Assembly (NCBI RefSeq): GCF_006345805.1
Contig: NC_043003.1
Coordinates: 74,214,001-74,278,000, forward strand
Direction: 5' to 3'
Source: Octopus sinensis
Lineage: Eukaryota
DNA: 64,000 nucleotides
Each line of letters begins with the position of its first letter. The stretch's first letter is position 1. Below, piece after piece: positions 2,546 to 45,533 of the stretch. The notes below the pieces were generated by a model. The model saw nothing but the letters and a program-made list of their open reading frames with translations, did no database searches and had not been told where the DNA came from. The translations under genes were made by a program, and so were the position numbers.

Positions 2546-3603
2546 TATATATATATATGTATGTATGCATGTATGTATGTACATGTACGTGTATTTACAC
2601 ACATAAATTTATGTGAATTTTTGTCAATAAAAAGACGTTGCATTCATTCGTGTGCGAGTAAATACATATTCAAAGCTTGAAGAGATGCTATATTTTCGAA
2701 CATTTCTCATGGTTTAACTCAAGGTTCAGTTCCTCAGACTTAACTTTGAGTTTATATTAATTCCACCCTGGAAAACATTTTCAATAATCCGAGAATTTTT
2801 CTTTCAATGTTAAATGCTTACAGGCAAACTATATGGTTTTTCTTTCCATCTTTGTTTTCGGGTAAGAGTCATCTGTCTGTATATTTTAGTCAGCGTGACA
2901 TATAGTTATACGCTCCTGCGACATCAGTAAACAATATCGTGTGTGAATTGCATAACAATAACGTTTACTTCAAACATGATTAAAATGTTACGCCCATAAC
3001 CTTTTAAGATTATTCAGAAAATTTACTAACATTTCGACGGCACTTTTATTTCGCAAACAAGCATATTTCTCGGGTTAACGAAACGAAGTGCTAATTCCCA
3101 TGCTCATCATATTACATTAACATTCGGCAGCAAGCAGCATGCGCTCCGGAACTTATTGCACATGGTAATTTGAACTGGTTCATGGATATGTCCTACATGC
3201 AATACACAATGATGAAATGAAATTCGAAAGTAATACTACTACAGAGTTGCAGAAGCGACCTTCACTTAAGTCTAAACAGCCAGTGGATGTCAAAATCTAT
3301 CACTCAGACAACGTCTGCTGAACAAAATAAAAGAAGTGAGTTATTTGCATGCAAACTCAAAATGGAAAGTAACAACATCATAAGTTAGAGGGTAACAACA
3401 TTGACAGAAAAAATAGCCTTCGAAGCGTATGTGATAGGTGCATTGGATCCCATCTAAAAGGTTATACTTTCCCATTGCAGGGACAGGAAATGCCTACTAA
3501 ATATCTGATAAGCAAAATGTACAGAGATATCGTCTAACCTTCATGTTGTTGAAGAAACTGTTGGCTCAATCATACCAGAGTAGAATATATAACCAATATC
3601 ATA

Positions 3604-4119
3604 ATCAGTTGTCACAAAATGTGTACGAGATAGTATCTGCCCCCTGAGACATGCTGTAGTTGCAAAATCAATTTTCAACACTATCCCCAAGAAGGATTGC
3701 TCAGCAATATGCATCAAAGATATGACAGAACCAGCATATATTTAAAAGTGATTTAAAAGCGAAGAATACTGTTCAAACATTCCAATGAAAACACCAATTC
3801 GGTGCAAGTATATCAGACCTGATGTATTTCTGTAGAACAGGGAACAAAATTTACGCGCTGTTGTAGAGGTCATACTTCAAAAATTATATTCCGCAGCACT
3901 CCCGATTTTCCATATCAGGTTAGGGCCCGGAGTCTTCAAAATGGACGTATTACATGTCGCTTACTCGAATCCGACCGTCATTTATTCCACAAATGCATTG
4001 TCATCAATGCTGCACTTTTCCGTATCAACGGTTTCGACATAACTGTAATTATAAATATACATATACTTACATACATACATATATATATATATATATAACC
4101 TGAGATATGATGTAGTTGC

Positions 4120-4341: not shown

Positions 4342-7300
4342 GTTGAGAAGAGAGAGAGAGAGAGAGAGAGAGATGCATGCAATCAAAGAGAGATCAAAGA
4401 CTGAAAAATATCTGACGATGAATATTTAGGTGTATATATATATAGAGAGATATTTACATGAATAGATCAAACTTATACAGAGTACAAACGACAGAGAAAC
4501 GTAATGAAGAGGCATGGTATTATAAGTTCAATAGCTGTTTCTAGGGGCTCAGTGATCCATCAGAATTTCGGAAAGTGTAGTTCACCTTAATATGGAAGTC
4601 GCAATGATGAATCTCTATGACATCAGATACAGTCGTCGGACACTTCAACTCTTCCCTTCAATTTTCTCTATCATTTGTACTCTGTGTAATTTTGATCCTA
4701 TTCATACCAGTTTCTTTTATGTTTCTATCATTGGAGCGAGGGCATGCAGGAGCACCGCCTTGAAGAGCCGAAGCATACTGAACGCTTCACGAGTTGGCGT
4801 ATCATCTATAGATTTATGTGTGCGTGTTTTTAAGATACGTATAGTAACCTCATACCAATTTATGCCATATGCTATTTATCAACACATTGCTTTGATAGGG
4901 AATGCCGTTAGTACATGCACGTTATATCGAAGTGAGAATAATGTAGTTGGGAGTCAACATCTTGCCAAAATGTCCTTGGTTCAATGTGACAATTTTTCAT
5001 TAGCTTAAGGCAATATTGAGTCGGATTTTGTGTTTATATGTGTTTAAGTTCCTAGTAGCTGTAAAATAAAAATCTAGCTATTAATTGCAAGGTTGATAAT
5101 GTCGACACAGCTTTTCACTCGTGACGACTGTGCTAGCATTATCAAAGGTTAGAATCTATAACCTTTTCATCACGGCATTATACAAAGAAATCTAGACCAA
5201 TATTTATTGCCGCTACTGCTGTGTCTACTTCGACTTCTTATAGGGAATAATAATATCAGAAATTGACGTTAATGTTTTGCACAACCTCTGCCTCCAGATT
5301 TGGCTTTGGCTTAGTTTTTCACACACACACACCCACTACAGACGCACAACAAGCTAGAATTGAATAAATATAGTGACGGCGGTGGTTATAGTAACACCGA
5401 CAGTAAATATGATGACGATGATGATAATAATGATGATGATGAGCAGGAGGAGGAGGAGGAAAAGGATGCTGATGATGATGATGGTTACTATTATTATTAT
5501 GATGATGATGATGATTCATGGTTCATCAACTTTATAGCAACATATGTATTATTTGTTAAAAAGAGATATAAATGATTTCAGAAATAAGGTGAATTCTATA
5601 GCAGCATCTATAACACCAGTATGGTTGAAGAACATTACAGTACTTCTGCCTCTTATAATGAAAGGAACAATGTGTCATGACAAATGTTTTAGATATACAG
5701 TAAAATGATACCATCATATACCAAAGCTGTACCCTATAACCAGTGAAATTATTTCAAAACATGAGATGAAAGCAACATTTCAAATACATAATTAACGAAT
5801 GTGGGATATTTTCCAAATTCAAATCAACTCCTTTCTTTATATATTCACTTGCTTGTTCCAATGACACACGTTTCTATTCTGAATTGCAATTACTTCAACA
5901 TTCATTTCTAAGATTATCTGTCGATTACCGAAACCAATCGTTATCAATACTTTCATCTCTCTTTTTATTTAACTATTTCTTTCTTAACTCGCTTGTATCT
6001 CTTTTATCTTCTTATCTCCTTGTCTTAGCACTTCATCTAACATACAACTCTCTAATTTGCTTCAGTCTTCTATGTCAATTTTACGAGTTTCTGTCTTTCC
6101 TTCTTTCTTCGTCTCTCGGTGTATCTATATATGCACATACATTCAACCTACATATGCACACCCTCAGCAATCGTTTACAAGGATACACTCACACGCATAC
6201 ACACAAAGCTCGTACGCTCGCATTCACAAGGATTACGCATGCACACACTCACACACGCACACATGGACAAATTTGCCCGCTTGTGAAAAGTATAAAATCG
6301 CATTTCGAAAATAATAATAGTATATGCAGTTAAATTAATTCAACATATTCTGAAGATCAAATTGCTGGATTTTGAGCTCAGTCTCTATGGGACATGCGTG
6401 TATATATAATAGCATACATTGATATCACCTTTTGAAGCATGCGATTGGATTACTACTATATATACATAATTGGATTATATAATTGACGGTGTTGATGCCA
6501 ACTTTAAATTCCCCGAAACTCATGCAAAGTATCCAAAATCTTGAATACTCTGCTGATGTATAAAATCAGTGCACTTTATGTCATCTGTCTTGACAATTAA
6601 TAATTAATTATCATATTCAACTGTTGGTTAAATTAACATTAGCGCTAATTGAAATGCTTCATTGAAATAACTAGAATATGTCTTGGAGAAACATGGCATT
6701 GACACCAAAATCAAGAATATTTCAGAGAGAAAATATATATATACATTAGCACACAAAAATTGCTTACACTGGTTGACATGTGAGAAATAGTTAATAAAGA
6801 TATACAAAGGGAATTTTTTATATTGTAGAAAAAACAGAAATATTCCATGAACGCATAACTTGAATCGGTTGAGAAAATTATCAAAGTACTACTATAATAT
6901 AATTGTTGTTTTTTCTGAATAACTATTAATAATTAATCTTGGAATTTGGGAATTTTCAAGACCTAGAAATTAAATTTCTTCAATTTTTTAATGTATATAT
7001 GTATGGCAACCTTGTTAAGTAATGGTTTCATACTCTTATTACCTGGTGACGAATGCGACATATGGATATATAAATCTATACATATAAATTTGACATGGGC
7101 GATTCTTTCTTCTCTTGGAATTCACGGTCAAACGGCTGGGTAGAATTACGCGAAATATTACACAGATGTGTAGAACCATCTAGTGGTGATGCTGTGCTTT
7201 GTATTTTTTCATAACTCCCATGATTACCGAGATCATCTACTATAATAATACTCTTGTGTTTATGAATGAGAAAGGATGGGGTGATAGATGAATAAGGAAG

Positions 7301-8255
7301 GATGGGGTGGTGTCATATTTAGTAGTGGGATGATGAATATTGTACGCTAAAAAATAAATCAAGCAGCGTTTCAACTCTCTGCCAATGTATGTGTGTATAT
7401 AAAAAGGGTATGTTAATGTGTGTGTTTGCTTGTGTGCGTGTACGGGTCCGCAATGGAAATGGGATGGTTCATCTTTATTCGCTTATTATTTGGGTTTATT
7501 TTTTGATTTGGTTGAAACTTCGTTCTTTGTTTTGTTGGTCAATTATTTTTAGTGTTTTGAATGAAAGAGTCATTCTAAAATTGCATTCAACGTAAACGTA
7601 CCCAAAGAAGTTGAATGCTTACACAGAGCAGGTTTTACAGCCACATCATCCAAACCGACCGGGCTTAGCTGCTAGTTATTATATAAAGTAATGTTCACAA
7701 TAAACACATTTGTATACATTCAGTGTTTGTATACGGCTAACAAGGTAGAAATATCGATGCCTGGGTACGCGCCAGGTGGCAGCACTGGATAGATATGGTG
7801 TTTTTAATCCTGCTCCATAGCGGATAATTTTTTTCTCCACGGTAACTGCAAAGAATGTGCCTTCAGCATTTGAAGTATATCACAATCATATTTAACCTTA
7901 GCTGACTTCGCTTATGCCCAAACACTGTTGGCCGCTGATACTGATATAACACACACACACATACGCACTTATATATTACTGAAAACAGTGTGATTCGGAT
8001 TCCCTGCCACATATATAACTTCTTACCTTTCCACTTGTTTATGTCATTGGACAACGGCCGAGCTGGACCCCATCGGTAGTGGGTATATTCGAACAAATCA
8101 GCACCGGCACTAATTTTTAAAGCCTGATAATTATCATGAATGTTTCCTATTTGGAAGTGTTAGGTTTCAGTGAAGGAAACAAACCATCTCTGATTTTAAA
8201 GGGGTAGTTTGAGAGAAACACACACACACAGATAGGTATAAACATGCATACACAC

Positions 8256-8368
8256 CTATATGTACATGCCGTAGAAATCTTTTCCTTTCTGTCACCAAAT
8301 TCACTCAAAAGGCGTGTCACGAAGTCGTGCTCAAGGGCAAAGATGCTGCGAAGTGGGACGGAAAGCAT
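8256..8368 (-). CDS. Candidate alternative first exon (MLSVPLRSIFALEHDFVTRLLSEFGDRKEKISTACTY)
   Basis: aatATG start, TAG|GTGTGT donor (phase 2), non-repetitive GC-richer island. No homology recognised. Confidence 0.22.
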
Positions 8369-8438
8369 ATTGGGTAGTAAACTTCCTACGAAATACCCGT
8401 GCTAGCGCTTATCTATATGTGTGTATGTGTGTGTGTGT

Positions 8439-8483
<45 letters not shown>

Positions 8484-8991
8484 GTGCGTGTACGTGTGTG
8501 TGTGTATGTGTGTGTGTGTATCGTAAAATCGACAAAGATAGTGCACTGAAGATCCCGGGAACTGTAAAATGTCAACGTTTGGAACTGATTCTTATTTTCG
8601 GGAGAAAATGACAGGAGAGAAATTAATGAGAACCGGCAAATCTTTTATATTGTGCGAGTAAATACAACTTGATTCTACTTAGAAGATGTAAAACTCTACA
8701 ATCTCTCACTAAATATTTGCCCTGGGAACTCTTTTGTGAAGAAGAACTGTATTGAAAACGTATTTGCACTTCTATATGAGATCCCCACTCTATTTGTGTG
8801 TGTGTATATATATATATATATATACGAAGGTACTACACGGGCAACTACATCGCTGAGAATAGAAATCACAAATACTTCTGTATATATACGTATATATTGT
8901 GTAGTGTTCCGTGATGGTAAGATCAACAATAATGTACTCCATATGGTAAGCGATAAATACTATTTAATAAACACATTTTATATTTTTATTG

Positions 8992-11820: not shown

Positions 11821-12870
<1,050 letters not shown>

Positions 12871-24052: not shown

Positions 24053-27000
24053 TACGTTTGACTTTTGCTTTATATTTGTACAAGTTGGCTCCAAGTCTCA
24101 CCCAGAGACCTCAAGAGACAACAGGGTTGAAAGTTCATGTTGTTGTTATGCCTAGTGTGCCATATATTTGGGGGGGGGGTTGTACTAATGAATGCCTAAA
24201 AAAAAAAAAAAAATTTTTTTGTTTTAAACCTTGAGATTACATAGAAAGTATTTTGCGTAGGATATGAGCAGTTCCCATGAGCACTATCTTTTGAATTTCT
24301 GCCATTTTTGGGTTTCCTGGTATCTGAGTTAGGTAGCTATCTGCCCCTTTTGCTATCATTCCCAGGGCACCTATGACAACAGGTATTGTTTTAGTCTTCA
24401 GCTTCCACATTTTGCTGATTTCTATTTCAAGATCTTTATATTTGCTCAGTTTTTGGTAGGTCTTGACAGATACGTTTATATCGATTGGGACAGTCATATC
24501 AATGAGGAGGCATGTTTTTGTTTGAAGTCTTTCAATATGATGTCTGGCCTATTTGCATCTATCTTTCTGTCAGTTTGAATGGCGAAGTTCCAGAGGAGTG
24601 AGATGTGGTCATTTTCAAGCACTGGGGGTGGTTTGTGTTCCCACCAGTTTTTTTCATGGGGCAAATCCAGGTTTTTACAGATTACCCAGTGAATATATTG
24701 TGCAGCTCTATCGTGCCTGTTGAGATATTCTGTAGGCGCTAGAAGACTGCACTTGGAGACCACATGGTCAATGGTTTCATTTTGTTGCTTGCATACACGA
24801 CATGTTGGACTGCTTCTGATCTTTAATATGTTGGCCTGGTAGTTTCTTGTTGGTAGGCATTGATCTTGAGCTGCTATGATAAACCCCTCTGTTTCCGATT
24901 TTAAGCCAGAGGCCATTAGCCATTGATGGGTCAGGGTTTTGTCAACATCTGCATTATTTGCTCTCGTTGGGTATTTGCCATAGAGACGTTTTTCTTGCCA
25001 TTTATCATTCAGAATATCTAAGGCCGCAGATTTAGCACGGGTTTTCATGCGCTTAGCTTTTTCTGTGCCTGTTTCTTGTATGTCTATCTCTAATTCCGAA
25101 ATTGGTTGTATTCGGAATTCACTTAGGTATTCCTTTGCCTGTTTTGTTACTGAGTATGATGCTTTCTTGTTTTCATGTTTTGAGACAAGTTTTAACATCC
25201 AGTCCTCAGAGTTTTTCAGGTAGGTGTCTAGGCCAATTGTAGCAATCTTCATTGTTATTGCCAGTTGTAAAAGTCCACGGCTTCCCTCTTTTCTTGGCAG
25301 ATAAAGTCGTTCTGTATCTGCCTTAGGGTGGTGCATTCTATGCATTGTCAACAGTTTTCGTATTTTTCTGTCAAGATTACATATTTCAGTAATTGACCAG
25401 TTAACGATACTGAAACTGTAAGTCACGACTGGTATGGCTAATGCATTGATCGCTTCGATCCTGTTTCTCGCATTCAGCTCTGTCTTGAGTATTGCTCTTA
25501 CTCTGCGATAGCATTCTCTCCTGATCCTTTCCTTCATCTCTGAATGCCTTATTCCTCCTCCTTCAATTAACCTTAAATACTTGTAGTTCTCTGCTGGGTC
25601 TAATCCTTTTATGACATTCTGCTGGTCAAGGTTAACGTTAGATGTTTCTGTCATTTTTCCTTTGATAAAGGTAGCTTTTGCGCATTTATCGAGGCCAAAT
25701 TGCATTATGATGTCATCACTGAATTGTTTGACAATCGCTAGTAAGCCCTTGAGTTGCTGGTCATTTTTTGCAAAGAGCTTTAAATCATCCATGTAAATGA
25801 GATGATTTATATTTTTATCAAACATTTTATATCCGTACTGCGCATCATTGAGCAGTTTTGAGAGAGGTATTAAGGCTAAACAGAAGAGGAGCGGTGATAG
25901 TGAGTCACCCTGGAAAATGCCACATGAAATTTTTACATCACCAGCATTTAGAGATTCATTGTCACTGTTCAAAGTTAGTGTGGTTCTCCATGATCTCATA
26001 CTTACAGACAAAAAGTTTCGCAGAGCAGGTGCTATCTTATACATTTCTAGGCATTTATTAATCCAGCTATGTAGTAGGCTATCAAAAGCCTTTTTATAGT
26101 CTATCCAGGCTATTGATAAGTTTTTGTGTCGTTTGTGACAATCTTCTAAGATCATCTTATTGATGAGTAGTTGATCTTTACAACCGTAGGATCCACGTTT
26201 ACATCCATTCTGTTCATTAGGGAATATGCTGCTGTCTGTCAAAAAACTATAGGTATATTCCGTCAGGACAGATGTTAGTGTTTTATACATAGTTGTTAAG
26301 CAGGTTATGGGTCTATAGTTTTTGGGTTCATTTGTTTCTTCACTTTTTGGAAGCAGGAATGTTAACCCATTAACTAGCCAAGGAGGCATCCTACTAGGGT
26401 GTTGCAAAACATCATTGTACAGTTCTGCTAGCAGTTCATGGCTCTCTGGGAAGGCATTCAACCAAACGTTAGGGATTTTATCCTTTCCTGGAGACTTCCA
26501 TTTGCTTGACCTCCTGAGAGCAGATCTTATATCTTCTACCTTGACACCCTCCCACTTTTGCTCTTCTAAGGAGTCCAGTTCTTTAGATATTCTGTCAATC
26601 CAGGGGGCCTTTTCGCTGTGTGTTTTTTCTTCTGCCCAAATTTTATTCCCAAATCCCTGCACTTCTTCTTTTGATGGTACAGACTTTACAGTAACTGTTG
26701 TTTTTCCTATCTCCCTGTAAAAATGTTTGGGGTTATTTTTGAACATGTTGTTGTCCCTGTAGAATCTAATACGCTTTTCATACCTCGCTATGCGGGCAGC
26801 TTTAGCAGATACCTTTTGCTAGATGGTTTCTATGGTGGCATCAATATCAAGTATAGTTTTCATATTATATTTTTTCATTAGTTTTTGGGTTTTTGCAGGT
26901 TTGGTAGTCTTATGAACCTTAAGGTTTTTCAAATATTCAATGTCAGATCTAAATAGTTTAATTTGTTGTTGCAAACGCTCTTGCCAAGAAGGCTTTCTGT

Positions 27001-28110
27001 GGAAATGTTGCCGTTTTCTAATCTTTTCACCACATAGGATCGTTGAGATTTTCGCGGATGCATAGTATAGGTGGTTGAGATCTGTGATATCAACATCATT
27101 AGCTGAAATTATATCCTTAAGTGCAAGCCGGATTTTACCAATTATTTTCATGTTTTGGTTAGATTTGCGTATTTTAGGGAGTGTATCACGTTCATCCATA
27201 CTGGTTTCTTTAATTTTCATCCATTCAATCATGATTTGACTTTTTAGCTCATGTAGTTCTGTCGGGTCAATATTTGTGTGACTTTCTTCATATATTTGAT
27301 GTTCATCTGTCTTAGTGTTTATATTTGGTTCAGGGAGTATTTCACATTGCCTATCACTTATACTAACTCTTTCAATCCTTACTTCGTTTGTATTAGCTCT
27401 GAGCTGGTCTATAATTATTTCCTCTGTATTATCTTCTTTAGCTGCAGCTTCGTTCATTTTATCCGTTACTGCTTGTTTAAATTGATCAATCTCTACTTCA
27501 GTCAGTAATTTTTTTTTTATAATGTTTCTTCTGACGTTGACAAGTTTGTTACTGTCTATGTAGGGTCTTACTTCAGGGTGTTTCTGTCTCCAGTTTATGT
27601 AGGTTTGTATAGTGTTCGATTTATCTGTGGGGAAATATATGGCATGATAGAAGGCTGCAAGAACTTCTTTATTATCTTCCCTAGTCCATTTTTCCTTCTT
27701 TTTCTTTTGAGTGTGTGGTGACGAGCATGGATGGCCATCTGTTGGAATATTCCAGTTGCGGGGTACGTCCAGCTCCTGTGTGTCGGGAAAATTTGATCCA
27801 GTAGCTGATATTTCAATCAGACTTTGGTTCAATTTTCGGGTACGTGGTCTTTTGTAATCCGCGCAATGACCAATGCGGTTTATTGTTTGATTTGTTGACC
27901 TTGAAGCATGACGAGCTTCGACTCTTACATTAAGAGACGGATCTGTCAGTTTAGGATTTTCTGCACGTAAACATTGTTCGTAGCGTAGTTTCCTAAGGCT
28001 AGCAGATCTGTATTCGTCTGTATTTTTTTTGTTGATAGTTTTATCTCCGGGCATAGTTTTCCCTTCTTTTTATTTATTTATTCATTTATTTCTTTAAACT
28101 TATGAAAGGT
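24052..28110 (-). mobile_element. Near full-length R4/Dong-clade non-LTR retrotransposon inserted at (TAA)n
   Basis: Single-ORF RT plus restriction-like endonuclease architecture. A 185-bp 3' UTR ends exactly at the TTA array 24008-24051. The 5' boundary is approximate. Confidence 0.96.
24237..28054 (-). pseudogene. R4/Dong polyprotein of ~1270 aa (Myb-like N-terminus, RT, CCHC, PD..D endonuclease) with two disablements
   Basis: ORFs 26819-28054 and 24494-26746 are in frame and separated by one TAG at 26819-26821. A 1-nt loss near 24515 breaks QKTCLLIDMTVP. Motifs: KWTREDN, YRPITCL, IDYKKAFDS, GIFQGDSLSP, YMDD, CRVC..ETIDHVVSKC, RHD, RPDI..ID, K..KY. Confidence 0.95.
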
Positions 28111-42545: not shown

Positions 42546-43282
42546 CCAGCGCCTATATACGTCATGCGGAATAATTTTAAGGGAATTAATCACGAACAAA
42601 TTAGTCAATGGATATAGCGTGACACCTGATTTAGGACTGCTTTTGGTGCTAGTCATCGCAAGTCAGGCATCCACGCAGATACAAGCATGACGAAGTTATA
42701 CCGGTGATACTTGGGAGTTAGTTTGTGAGATTAAATGCTATGTTCCTTTTATTTTCTAACTTCCCATATTGAGATCAGTGATTTTAAACATTTATTTAAG
42801 CATGGCCACTAAACAAAGATCTCTGTAATTATACTGGTTCTATTTCGAACAGTGCATTTGACAGTCTGGTTTGCTAGTTACAAGATCAGAGACTGTATGA
42901 GACTGTAATTTATTTTTATATATCTTATATACGGGATAATACTAATGCCATGCCTGGCGAATGACTGCACACCACTGAAGTGATCCAATAATATCGAAAT
43001 CTGATGGTCTAGTATCTAGGGTAATAGGAGTTTTCCCCCAGTTTGTGATGAATATCGATTGCACGAGCGCAGTGAATAAAAAGTTTATTTTTTGTTTTGT
43101 TTCTCTGAACTTTTCTTTGGAGAAACGTTAAAAAAGCTACTCTTCTTTCCACCTTTCCAGAGCGTTAAACTAATATATTCCTTGTGTACGCCCTATTGTT
43201 GTTTTGTTATTACAATTTTTAATGTTCGATTATTTGCTCGAGTTTTAATGTTCGATTTGAATACACTCACACACATACATAC

Positions 43283-43334
<52 letters not shown>

Positions 43335-43483
43335 AATATAAGAGAGTGGTCACTATATGGCTCACTCTAGCACCAGTTAATCCAAAAGGTTTCAACCACG
43401 AAAATACATGTTTCCCATGAAAGTCAGTACGATTGTTAGCTCACACGGACAGGGCAAATAAAAAATAACAAAAATACAGATTA

Positions 43484-43566
43484 TTTTGGGACAATTGTTT
43501 CGCTATTAATGAATTAAATGTAATTTTACTTACAAAAAAAATCCATTTGTAGCTCGTCAGCCAAAA
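43484..43566 (-). ncRNA. Type-I hammerhead ribozyme (minus-strand copy)
   Basis: Exact reverse complement of 44563-44645. Confidence 0.9.
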
Positions 43567-44562
43567 CTATCTGGATGAAATCCACTCAATCACACGCCAG
43601 ATTTTACCATAACGATAAATACGCGTGTGGTTCAATTGATTACATCCGACGTTATAATTCAAATGCCCCAACTAACAGCGCGCCAAACTTTCACGGAAAA
43701 CAAATACAGCATTTAGAAATAAATGCAGCATAATTATAATTAATTAATAAGGGTGAGAGAATTAGATACTAATTTAATAGTATATCTATTCAACACCAAG
43801 TGGCCTAGTGCTCCGAGAAACCTGGATTATTATAATATTTTATAACATATTATAATATTTTTACAAAATAAATATAAGAGAGTGGTCACTATATGGCTCA
43901 CTCTAGCACCAGTTAATCCAAAAGGTTTCAACCACGAAAATACATGTTTCCCATGAAAGTCAGTACGATTGTTAGCTCACACGGACAGGGCAAATAAAAA
44001 ATAACAAAAATACAGATTATTTTGGGACAATTGTTTCGCTATTAATGAATTAAATGTAATTAAGTAAAATTACATTTAATTCATTAATAGCGAAACAATT
44101 GTCCCAAAATAATCTGTATTTTTGTTATTTTTTATTTGCCCTGTCCGTGTGAGCTAACAATCGTACTGACTTTCATGGGAAACATGTATTTTCGTGGTTG
44201 AAACCTTTTGGATTAACTGGTGCTAGAGTGAGCCATATAGTGACCACTCTCTTATATTTATTTTGTAAAAATATTATAATATGTTATAAAATATTATAAT
44301 AATCCAGGTTTCTCGGAGCACTAGGCCACTTGGTGTTGAATAGATATACTATTAAATTAGTATCTAATTCTCTCACCCTTATTAATTAATTATAATTATG
44401 CTGCATTTATTTCTAAATGCTGTATTTGTTTTCCGTGAAAGTTTGGCGCGCTGTTAGTTGGGGCATTTGAATTATAACGTCGGATGTAATCAATTGAACC
44501 ACACGCGTATTTATCGTTATGGTAAAATCTGGCGTGTGATTGAGTGGATTTCATCCAGATAG

Positions 44563-44645
44563 TTTTGGCTGACGAGCTACAAATGGATTTTTTTTGTAAG
44601 TAAAATTACATTTAATTCATTAATAGCGAAACAATTGTCCCAAAA
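44563..44645 (+). ncRNA. Type-I hammerhead ribozyme with canonical core, extended stem II and palindromic loop 3
   Basis: Stem I UUUUGG/CCAAAA; CUGACGA 44569-44575; stem II GCUA...UAGC 44576-44627; GAAAC 44628-44632; AAUU; GUC 44637-44639 (predicted cleavage after 44639). Confidence 0.92.
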
Positions 44646-44920
44646 TAATCTGTATTTTTGTTATTTTTTATTTGCCCTGTCCGTGTGAGCTAACAATCGT
44701 ACTGACTTTCATGGGAAACATGTATTTTCGTGGTTGAAACCTTTTGGATTAACTGGTGCTAGAGTGAGCCATATAGTGACCACTCTCTTATATTTATTTT
44801 GTAAAAATATTATAATATGTTATAAAATATTATAATAATCCAGGTTCTCGGAGCACTAGGCCACTTGGTGTTGAATAGATATACTATTAAATTAGTATCT
44901 AATTCTCTCACCCTTATTAA

Positions 44921-45000
<80 letters not shown>

Positions 45001-45193
45001 CTATATATGAAGGATACCCATAAACAAGTGTTACTGTTTATGTAGTTCAGGCTTCCACCGCTAGCGATTTCAGTGCAGTCGCACTTTGTTTTGTATTGCT
45101 TCTCCCCTTTTCGTCGACTGGCATGATCAACACACATGCTTACATGTGGTTTACGGTTCCTTTTGGGTACCCATATATATATATATATTTTTT

Positions 45194-45533
45194 CTTTGAC
45201 CCCCTTCGGTCAGACACTGACCATGGGTTTGCACCTAGAGAGTTACCCTCTGAGGCACAAGTCTGGGCAAGGTTGTTTTATGGAAGACCAGCAGTCGCCC
45301 ATGCATACCGGTCTTCCCTCTCCACGTCACCGATGTTGTCCAAGGGAAAGGCAAAGGGGCCGATACAGCTTGGCACCTGTGACGTCGCAACTCATTTCTA
45401 CAGCTGAGTGAACTGGAGCAACGTGAAATAAAGTGTCTTGCTCAAGAACACAACACGCAGCCCGGTCCGGGATTCGAGCTCACAACCTCACGATCGTAAG
45501 CTCGACGCACTAACCACTGAGCCACGCGCCTTC
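45194..45533 (-). mobile_element. tRNA-derived SINE, family B
   Basis: Minus-strand head ggcgcgtggctcagtggttag (A box) ...gagctcgaatccc (B box), then ttcttgagcaagacact body; flanked by TA runs. Confidence 0.9.

Follow-up and report, generated by a model that had tools for sequence, protein, structure and literature searches.

A perfect palindrome in the Octopus sinensis genome, probably a single two-ended insertion of a hammerhead-bearing 536-bp repeat

The window examined here is a stretch of 64,000 nucleotides from Octopus sinensis (contig NC_043003.1, positions 74,214,001 to 74,278,000), and its subject is a palindrome with 733-nt arms that lies within a (TA)n microsatellite. This palindrome is probably a single insertion of a non-autonomous retroelement, built of 536-bp units that carry a hammerhead-like motif, in which both 3' ends of a cut (TA)n target primed complementary DNA (cDNA) synthesis on the same element RNA. 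One unit makes up both arms, in antisense orientation on one side and in sense on the other, with outer ends at unit positions q197 and q327 (q1 of the unit being window position 44068), and both of these ends adjoin (TA)n. It is one young insertion and an ordinary one for its kind, as such an architecture is already described for Penelope-like retroelements; 62 of 100 sampled family insertions have the same head-to-head design.

The palindrome, its repeat unit and the family

Extending the self-complementarity outward from the centre gave 733 nt per side with 0 mismatches (43329-44061 against 44068-44800), separated by the 6-nt spacer AAGTAA at 44062-44067. An earlier sequence-only reading of this DNA had given the same coordinates, arm identity and spacer, all of which proved exact when re-derived by script. 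A repeat search reports 743 nt at a rounded '100%'; the outermost 10 nt enter the (TA)n tract and contain 3 mismatches. An inverted repeat of 733 perfectly matched nucleotides cannot have arisen by chance. The sense arm outruns its mirror by 129 nt (44801-44929), giving arm lengths of 733 and 868 nt. Both outer ends pass directly into (TA)n and no (TA)n lies between the arms, while the unique flanks outside the microsatellite do not match each other and are not duplicated. At the centre, sense-arm homology begins at 44061 in the direct-repeat family D4 and at q530 when a trimer of the unit is used as the query, an overlap of 1 nt; the inner end of the antisense arm, ...AAATGTAATT (q1), and the start of the sense arm, (T)AAGTAAAATTAC (q530), have at most one letter in common.

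The target microsatellite is itself roughly mirror-symmetric, in that 43261-43329, (ACAT)n(AT)n, and 44936-45004, (TA)n(TGTA)n, show 93% complementarity over 69 nt. It is probably a compound microsatellite rather than a part of the palindrome.

Both arms are built of a head-to-tail tandem unit of 536 bp (direct-repeat families D4 and D5, spacing 536), of which the window holds no other copy. The unit is non-coding, with a longest open frame of 69 codons and a GC content of 32%. Each arm contains one complete hammerhead motif and a 3' half motif at the centre. The intact copy at 44556-44652 reads as a type-I hammerhead-like motif, for which self-cleavage is predicted. Its stem I pairs 44556-44568 with 44640-44652 (CAGAUAGUUUUGG with CCAAAAUAAUCUG) around a small internal loop, and the core elements C-TGACGA and GAAAC occupy 44569-44575 and 44628-44632. 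Stem II is long (44576-44627, apical loop 44600-44605) and opens with GCUA...UAGC, whereas helix III is a single base pair (C-AAUU-G) closed by the palindromic loop AAUU and followed by GUC. The core positions of hammerheads are numbered C3 U4 G5 A6 N7 G8 A9, G12 A13 A14, A15.1, U16.1 and C17. Read from the sequence, the conserved type-I core is present across 44569-44639, including the G10.1-C11.1 pair; N7, where variation is permitted, is C, G or U in different copies.

The RNA fold of 44548-44660 consists of stem I and the long stem II at -27.5 kcal/mol (z = -4.4), and 0 of 200 shuffled sequences were as stable. In the minimum-free-energy fold the tip of stem II in the intact copy is TGTAA-GTAAAA-TTACA (44595-44610), which bears out the earlier placement of the palindrome's spacer in the apex of this stem. 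According to passages of PMC4209133 and PMC7229834, helix III of animal type-I hammerheads usually consists of one or two base pairs closed by a palindromic loop, and in the former those with a 1-bp helix III are reported to need a dimer for cleavage.

The assembly searched for further copies comprises 2.72 Gb. The unit has at least 230 matches of 96-100% identity from the 40 of 855 candidates that were scored, and its q327 end followed by TATATA occurs exactly at 592 places genome-wide (reversed control, 0). At 19 of the 20 best-scoring loci an antisense array is followed directly by a sense array, with junctions that differ between loci. In these 20 loci one outer end of the family is fixed at ...CCCTTATTAATTAATTATA (q327) and the other lies near ...CTCTTATATTTATTTT (about q197-235); nearly all the insertion ends examined adjoin (TA)n-type sequence. 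Arrays of at least 11 units exist elsewhere (locus L077). The family is young, abundant and uniform.

A sample was formed from the first 100 of the 592 places listed, each followed for 6 kb inward and mapped with the unit trimer. An adjacent antisense arm was found in 62 of these insertions, 33 were sense-only (one of which extends beyond the retrieved stretch) and 5 gave no sense match of at least 45 nt. The outer end of the antisense arm falls within q190-240 in 58/62 cases and within q320-335 in 0/62. The one-sided tail measures about 90-130 nt across the family, and the sense arm is the shorter of the two in 22/62 insertions. At the junction the arms overlap by at least 1 nt in 37/62, have zero overlap in 14 and are separated by inserted letters in 11, so that family junctions look like the products of end joining or template jumps. 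Similarity between arms is higher within a locus than between loci (median 98.0% against 96.7%; Mann-Whitney p = 2.4e-5; 46 within-locus comparisons against 147 of 150 random between-locus pairs).

Two sampled loci, L107 (G000:C2:30409654-30415980) and L108 (G000:C2:30418402-30424728), lie 8.7 kb apart with nearly equal arm lengths and close junctions (q133/q454 and q127/q431). They may represent a local segmental duplication that carried the insertion, or two similar events.

Mapped onto the unit, the 124 inner arm ends of the 62 inverted insertions are scattered over its whole length: the 16-nt tip of stem II holds 3/124 against 3.7 expected and the whole hammerhead 24 against 23.1. The hammerhead cleavage site (q36/37) was rejected as a common arm end, since its neighbourhood, q30-46, holds 5 ends against 3.9 expected. 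The sole enriched stretch is q126-172, with 26/124 inner ends against 10.9 expected (Poisson p = 7e-5); it corresponds to 44193-44239 of the window and its mirror. Reverse transcription may pause there, or RNA ends may fall there by preference.

Junctions at which the arms end no more than 11 nt apart in the unit are in excess, at 13/62 where 4.3% would be expected (binomial p = 1.9e-6). Ten of these 13 near-palindromic insertions have a sense arm that exceeds the antisense arm by 80-140 nt, the two being otherwise full mirrors. The window insertion, at 733 and 868 nt, belongs to this recurrent mirror subclass; another, at locus L136, is similar in size and turns at q367-377. Each of the 13 turning points has a position of its own, 0 of them in the stem II tip, and several fall on short natural palindromes (GTAC, ACGCGT, GGAT..ATCC).

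A genome-wide pattern of antisense and sense 10-mers flanking the stem II tip within 14 nt was found at 8 places (reversed control, 5). Five of the 8 belong to the family, namely the insertion in the window, three loci with simple junctions (L051, L057 and L058) and L053, where the junction is complex. L047 also turns in the stem II apex and escaped the pattern through a 1-nt deletion. Spacers differ among these loci, which are therefore independent events. Patterns of the same design at comparison sites gave 2 places (q143) and 3 places (the helix III loop). The apex as a hot spot is unsupported in the unbiased sample and mildly favoured by this pattern comparison; the stem II tip is at most a mild hot spot, recurrently used as a turning point. 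At L053 (G000:C2:118654689-118657711, about 1500-1600) the sequence turns at the stem II tip, continues for 7 nt in sense and turns again on the palindrome CCACTCAATTGAGTGG, which suggests serial template jumps.

Table 1. Position, strand and basis of the features that make up the insertion (window coordinates).
Feature	Position	Strand	Basis
Left part of the (TA)n target microsatellite, with ACAT-type repeats before it	43286..43328	no strand	sequence
Antisense arm (some 1.4 of the 536-bp units); outer end q197 in AT-rich tract, inner end q1	43329..44061	-	complementarity, unit mapping
Complete hammerhead motif, mirror of 44556-44652	43477..43573	-	follows from perfect symmetry
Spacer AAGTAA, in the apical loop region of stem II (sense-arm q531-536)	44062..44067	+	direct-repeat homology
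Sense arm, about 1.6 units, ending at the family 3' end q327 (...TTAATTAATTATA) that adjoins (TA)n	44062..44929	+	unit mapping
Complete type-I hammerhead motif, predicted cleavage after 44639	44556..44652	+	sequence, RNA fold
One-sided 'tail' q198-q327, on the sense arm only	44801..44929	+	palindrome extension, sampled insertions
Right part of the (TA)n target microsatellite, then (TGTA)n	44930..45003	no strand	sequence

Proposed origin and its alternatives

In the reading that we favour, one cut (TA)n end would start a cDNA at q327 of the element RNA, and the other (TA)n end would anneal to that RNA at q198-260, a (UA)-like tract, and there start a second cDNA, which would become the inverted arm. 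If the second end annealed to the first cDNA instead, it would prime second-strand synthesis and leave a sense-only copy truncated in that tract. The 5' ends of 11/33 sense-only insertions do lie at q196-267, in the AT-rich tract, a position in keeping with its homology-guided engagement by the second (TA)n end. At the window locus both cDNAs would have run about 1.4-1.6 units toward the 5' end of the RNA and stopped 6-7 nt apart in the loop of the stem II tip, probably because of a template end or another shared stop. In mirror cases, of which the window would be one, both cDNAs would run to one and the same end of a shared RNA and be joined there, here with no more than 1 nt of microhomology. 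The enzyme would be supplied by one of the genome's many Penelope-like elements (PLEs), themselves also sited in (TA)n. The lack of (TA)n between the arms, the higher similarity of arms within a locus and the absence of q327 antisense ends all argue for one event.

Several points weigh against this origin. Two cDNAs whose stops lie no more than 7 nt apart at the end of some 0.8 kb require a common cause, for which something such as the 5' end of the RNA has to be assumed, and a single self-copying cDNA would produce the same mirror. The start sites of PLE reverse transcription in vitro are alike for either strand, top or bottom (PMC11167929), whereas the insertions described here have one arm of each kind; we would attribute this pattern to (TA)n homology and not to the published mechanism. 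The tail is 129-130 nt here against the 30-40 nt reported for PLEs, and a blastn comparison of the unit with six PLE-bearing loci found no similarity to the PLE body or ends, the only matches being to nearby family insertions (L127, L130). As for the ribozyme, Rfam returned 0 matches and no hammerhead over the whole window at the gathering score. With the threshold relaxed to E <= 10 over 43200-45050 it gave microRNA-model matches only, again with no hammerhead; any perfect hairpin would score on such models. The Rfam hammerhead models probably miss the motif because of an insertion of about 44 nt in stem II, and the strict pattern CTGANGA-N(4-30)-CGAAAC has no match because this stem exceeds 30 nt. 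Covariation was not countable among the 336 full-length motif copies in the loci retrieved up to that analysis, which comprise 98 distinct sequences with mostly single changes. Finally, no listed Logan contig from four DNA runs bridges the microsatellites or the centre, as contigs break at the repeats, a result that is neutral on the junction itself.

The mirror could also be the work of one cDNA that snapped back. Here a cDNA started at q327 would arrive at its template's end in the stem II loop, fold back and copy itself, and the other (TA)n end would then capture the copy-back strand within q197-235, the AT-rich tract. In favour of this reading, 10 of the 13 members of the mirror subclass, like the window insertion, lack full mirror symmetry in the tail alone, several junctions sit on short natural palindromes, L047 matches precisely what snap-back at the apex's natural GTAA-AA-TTAC repeat would yield, and the apex recurs as the turning point in 4 more family loci besides L047. 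The junction in the window is less accommodating, since its 3' end, ...TTTTACTT, is unable to pair with the site of resumption (AATT...), the overlap being at most 1 nt; a single strand ending ...GTAATTTTACTT would have to resume at AATT without base pairing at its 3' end. Without pairing at the junction, snap-back priming is not favoured there. Across the family it leaves the 22/62 insertions with a longer antisense arm, which simple self-copying cannot yield, and the 49/62 with out-of-phase arms to a second mechanism, and it further requires the RNA to be removed or displaced before copy-back. We regard this reading, limited to the mirror cases, as unlikely. The same evidence bears on the proposal of the sequence-only reading that the ribozyme hairpin caused the inversion by fold-back priming, which we did not find upheld: inner ends are no more frequent in the apex than expected, mirrors turn elsewhere at 13 positions, and the window's arms share too little for a primer to pair. 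When inversion points were mapped across copies, as that reading had proposed, they turned out to be largely random, the outcome that it had named as refuting. In its favour, four other loci and L047 share the apex.

The remaining explanations fare worse. Fold-back inverted duplications typically have perfect arms around a tiny spacer, and an ordinary sense insertion might later have been rearranged at the DNA level, part of it being duplicated in inverted orientation by replication template switching or hairpin-mediated repair at the small inverted repeat of stem II. Yet outer ends at q327 and q190-240 recur at (TA)n in 58/62 independent insertions and the flanks are not duplicated; recurrent outer ends point to the integration step and not to later accidents, and we hold such a rearrangement to be very improbable. 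The same perfect identity and very small spacer would be expected of an artefact, either a chimeric fold-back long read or a repeat collapse. Tandem and inverted PLE structures are said to trouble assemblies (PMC8557442, in the part consulted), and the short-read contigs give no spanning view of the locus. The arms are unequal in a family-specific manner, however, with a 129-nt tail on one side and an antisense end at q197, an asymmetric end signature that a fold-back read would not yield; in addition, the two unique flanks differ and the same design is found on many chromosomes. Credence in an artefact is accordingly slight. We give just as little to two independent insertions of opposite orientation into one (TA)n tract. 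The strong (TA)n preference and the at least 592 copies make double hits possible, but such hits would be hard to square with the lack of (TA)n between the arms, with an antisense end at q327 in 0/62 insertions, or with the greater likeness of arms within a locus.

Relation to Penelope-like elements, retrozymes and other inverted insertions

The sequence-only reading had linked the palindrome to PLE insertions that include an inverted partial copy, and the literature bears this out. In the sections of PMC8557442 consulted, PLE insertions are described as partial tandems truncated at the 5' end, beside which a further 5'-truncated copy often lies in inverted orientation, with a tail of 30-40 bp at one end only and with a (TA)n bias in some clades. 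The window insertion likewise has tandem copies, an adjacent inverted copy on the 5' side and a one-sided tail. The likeness to PLE architecture thus covers head-to-tail tandems, a head-to-head inverted copy, an extension at one end, a hammerhead and a (TA)n or AT-rich target. As for mechanism, both strands of the target are cleaved and extended in vitro by a purified PLE protein, reverse transcription begins at two sites within the RNA, the distance between which corresponds to the tail, and insertion is independent of hammerhead cleavage (PMC11167929). The arm ends seen here are consistent with two start points and with priming on both target strands. They differ in their second start, which is spread over q197-239 within a (TA)-like tract and is seemingly guided by homology, while the initiation sites of the PLE in vitro are not homologous to the target (PMC11167929).

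A broader generalisation, which we put forward tentatively and with more doubt than belief, is that the family records in nature how enzymes of the Penelope type integrate: almost all two-armed insertions would combine a precise start at q327 on one strand with a homology-guided start in the (UA)-like tract on the other, and retrozyme insertions would arise in a reaction that is obligatorily two-ended and asymmetric. If this were true, the PLE 'tail' would be the interval between a start chosen by the protein and one chosen by the target, and the fifth of two-armed insertions that are exact mirrors would be those whose two cDNAs had both run off a single RNA end. A rule that equates the tail with the interval between protein-chosen and target-chosen starts is not stated in the PLE literature consulted (PMC11167929 and parts of PMC8557442).

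Animal non-LTR (long terminal repeat) retrozymes offer a second comparison. Passages of PMC7229834 and of the preprint 10.64898/2026.07.22.740005 present them as tandem repeats that are non-coding and carry hammerheads; the preprint argues, in the portion consulted, that they derive from PLE pseudo-LTRs. The family shares with retrozymes, as these sources portray them, a non-coding, low-GC tandem unit with a type-I hammerhead in each, a 1-bp helix III with a palindromic tetraloop, a high copy number and a proposed dependence on PLEs. It departs from what the same passages report in its unit of 536 bp, against about 170-400 bp, and in a stem II of about 52 nt, against about 4 bp plus a loop. 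Inverted arms, tails, palindromes and (TA)n targeting are not described in the searched passages of PMC7229834 and the preprint 10.64898/2026.07.22.740005.

With no frame above 69 codons the unit has no open reading frame (ORF) for a reverse transcriptase (RT) or GIY-YIG endonuclease, and it can only be a non-autonomous passenger. Candidate enzymes are abundant. A genome search for GIY-YIG gave 5029 first-look candidates, of which 147 of the 150 scored matched, and the genome has intact ORFs of 781 aa that combine RVT_1 with a C-terminal GIY-YIG domain in copies flanked by (TA)n. The nearest Atlas clusters of these ORFs are PLE-type proteins of molluscs, chordates and arthropods. PLEs share the (TA)n target with the family, and a PLE protein would be a candidate for mobilising it.

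Two of the PLE-bearing loci deserve mention in their own right. At L128 (G000:C1:207473500-207481500) a compact 43-nt hammerhead-like motif, CTGACGA...GAAA...GTC, occurs at 84-126 and 6019-6061, within 656-bp direct repeats that are 98.9% identical and flank a 781-aa PLE copy; these repeats may be the pseudo-LTR of that PLE or another retrozyme family. At L130 (G000:C2:147696500-147706000) a PLE fragment with a GIY-YIG frame (3053-3964) lies 1 kb from a family array of 6.8 units in the opposite orientation (4946-8590), a proximity that may be due to chance, as both target (TA)n.

The closest general model for the insertions, by analogy, would be twin priming of the L1 retrotransposon. It produces a head-to-head inversion with cDNA starts at both outer ends and microhomology at the junction, and its second primer anneals internally by homology. 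The enzymes there are an apurinic/apyrimidinic endonuclease (APE) and the L1 RT, whereas the machinery proposed here is a GIY-YIG endonuclease with a telomerase-like RT; the tandem template and the far higher frequency (62/100) are further differences. A literature search joining twin priming with Penelope-like returned no title on PLE structure. Foldback (FB) transposons, too, have long inverted arms of tandem subrepeats whose number varies per arm, as in the window. They are unlike the present family in that its outer ends differ (q197 against q327) and its orientation rule and (TA)n junctions fit cDNA starts, and we know of no transposase partner for it.

Neighbouring sequence, transcripts and significance

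Elsewhere in the window, a long interspersed nuclear element (LINE)-type ORF of 774 aa with RVT_1 and zf-RVT (24494-26818) lies on the minus strand within 24494-28069, with a 416-aa open frame before it, and a separate zf-RVT fragment is found at 12281-12808, also on the minus strand. The window's sole reverse-transcriptase ORF is of LINE type and not a Penelope-like element. To the right of the insertion, 45168-45300 is the start of another very high-copy repeat, with a summed contig word depth of 1e5-1e6 in the four DNA runs; contigs of runs guessed to be RNA cover it as well.

The Logan DNA contigs examined over 42900-45300 come from four runs (three coded organisms, three studies). They cover the left flank to 43257 and contain family sequence at very high depth. 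Contigs from three further runs, whose RNA status is a guess, also carry family sequence, and one of 298 nt runs uncut through a hammerhead; contigs of this kind are unable to show circles. At the family level these runs yield contigs, with nothing specific to the window locus. Their A>G and T>C differences were considered as signs of editing and rejected, being few and lying between copies of a multi-copy family. A read-through transcript of the palindrome would fold into a long hairpin, a double-stranded RNA that may, as the sequence-only reading suggested, serve as a substrate for ADAR editing or for siRNA production.

The locus itself is of little importance, being a selfish, very recent insertion in intergenic, repeat-rich DNA of an element with no known function for the host. 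Its family is of modest value to the field. Each family insertion retains the two points at which cDNA started as well as the junction inside, and together the insertions amount to hundreds of independent 'fossil' integration events, which could be used to test the two-strand, two-start model drawn from one in vitro system (PMC11167929). They also add architectural evidence to the proposal that Penelope-like enzymes mobilise animal retrozymes. For this genome, perfect palindromes of 0.1-3 kb at (TA)n sites are to be seen as expected biology and not necessarily as misassembly, and each of them would give a long hairpin RNA if transcribed through.

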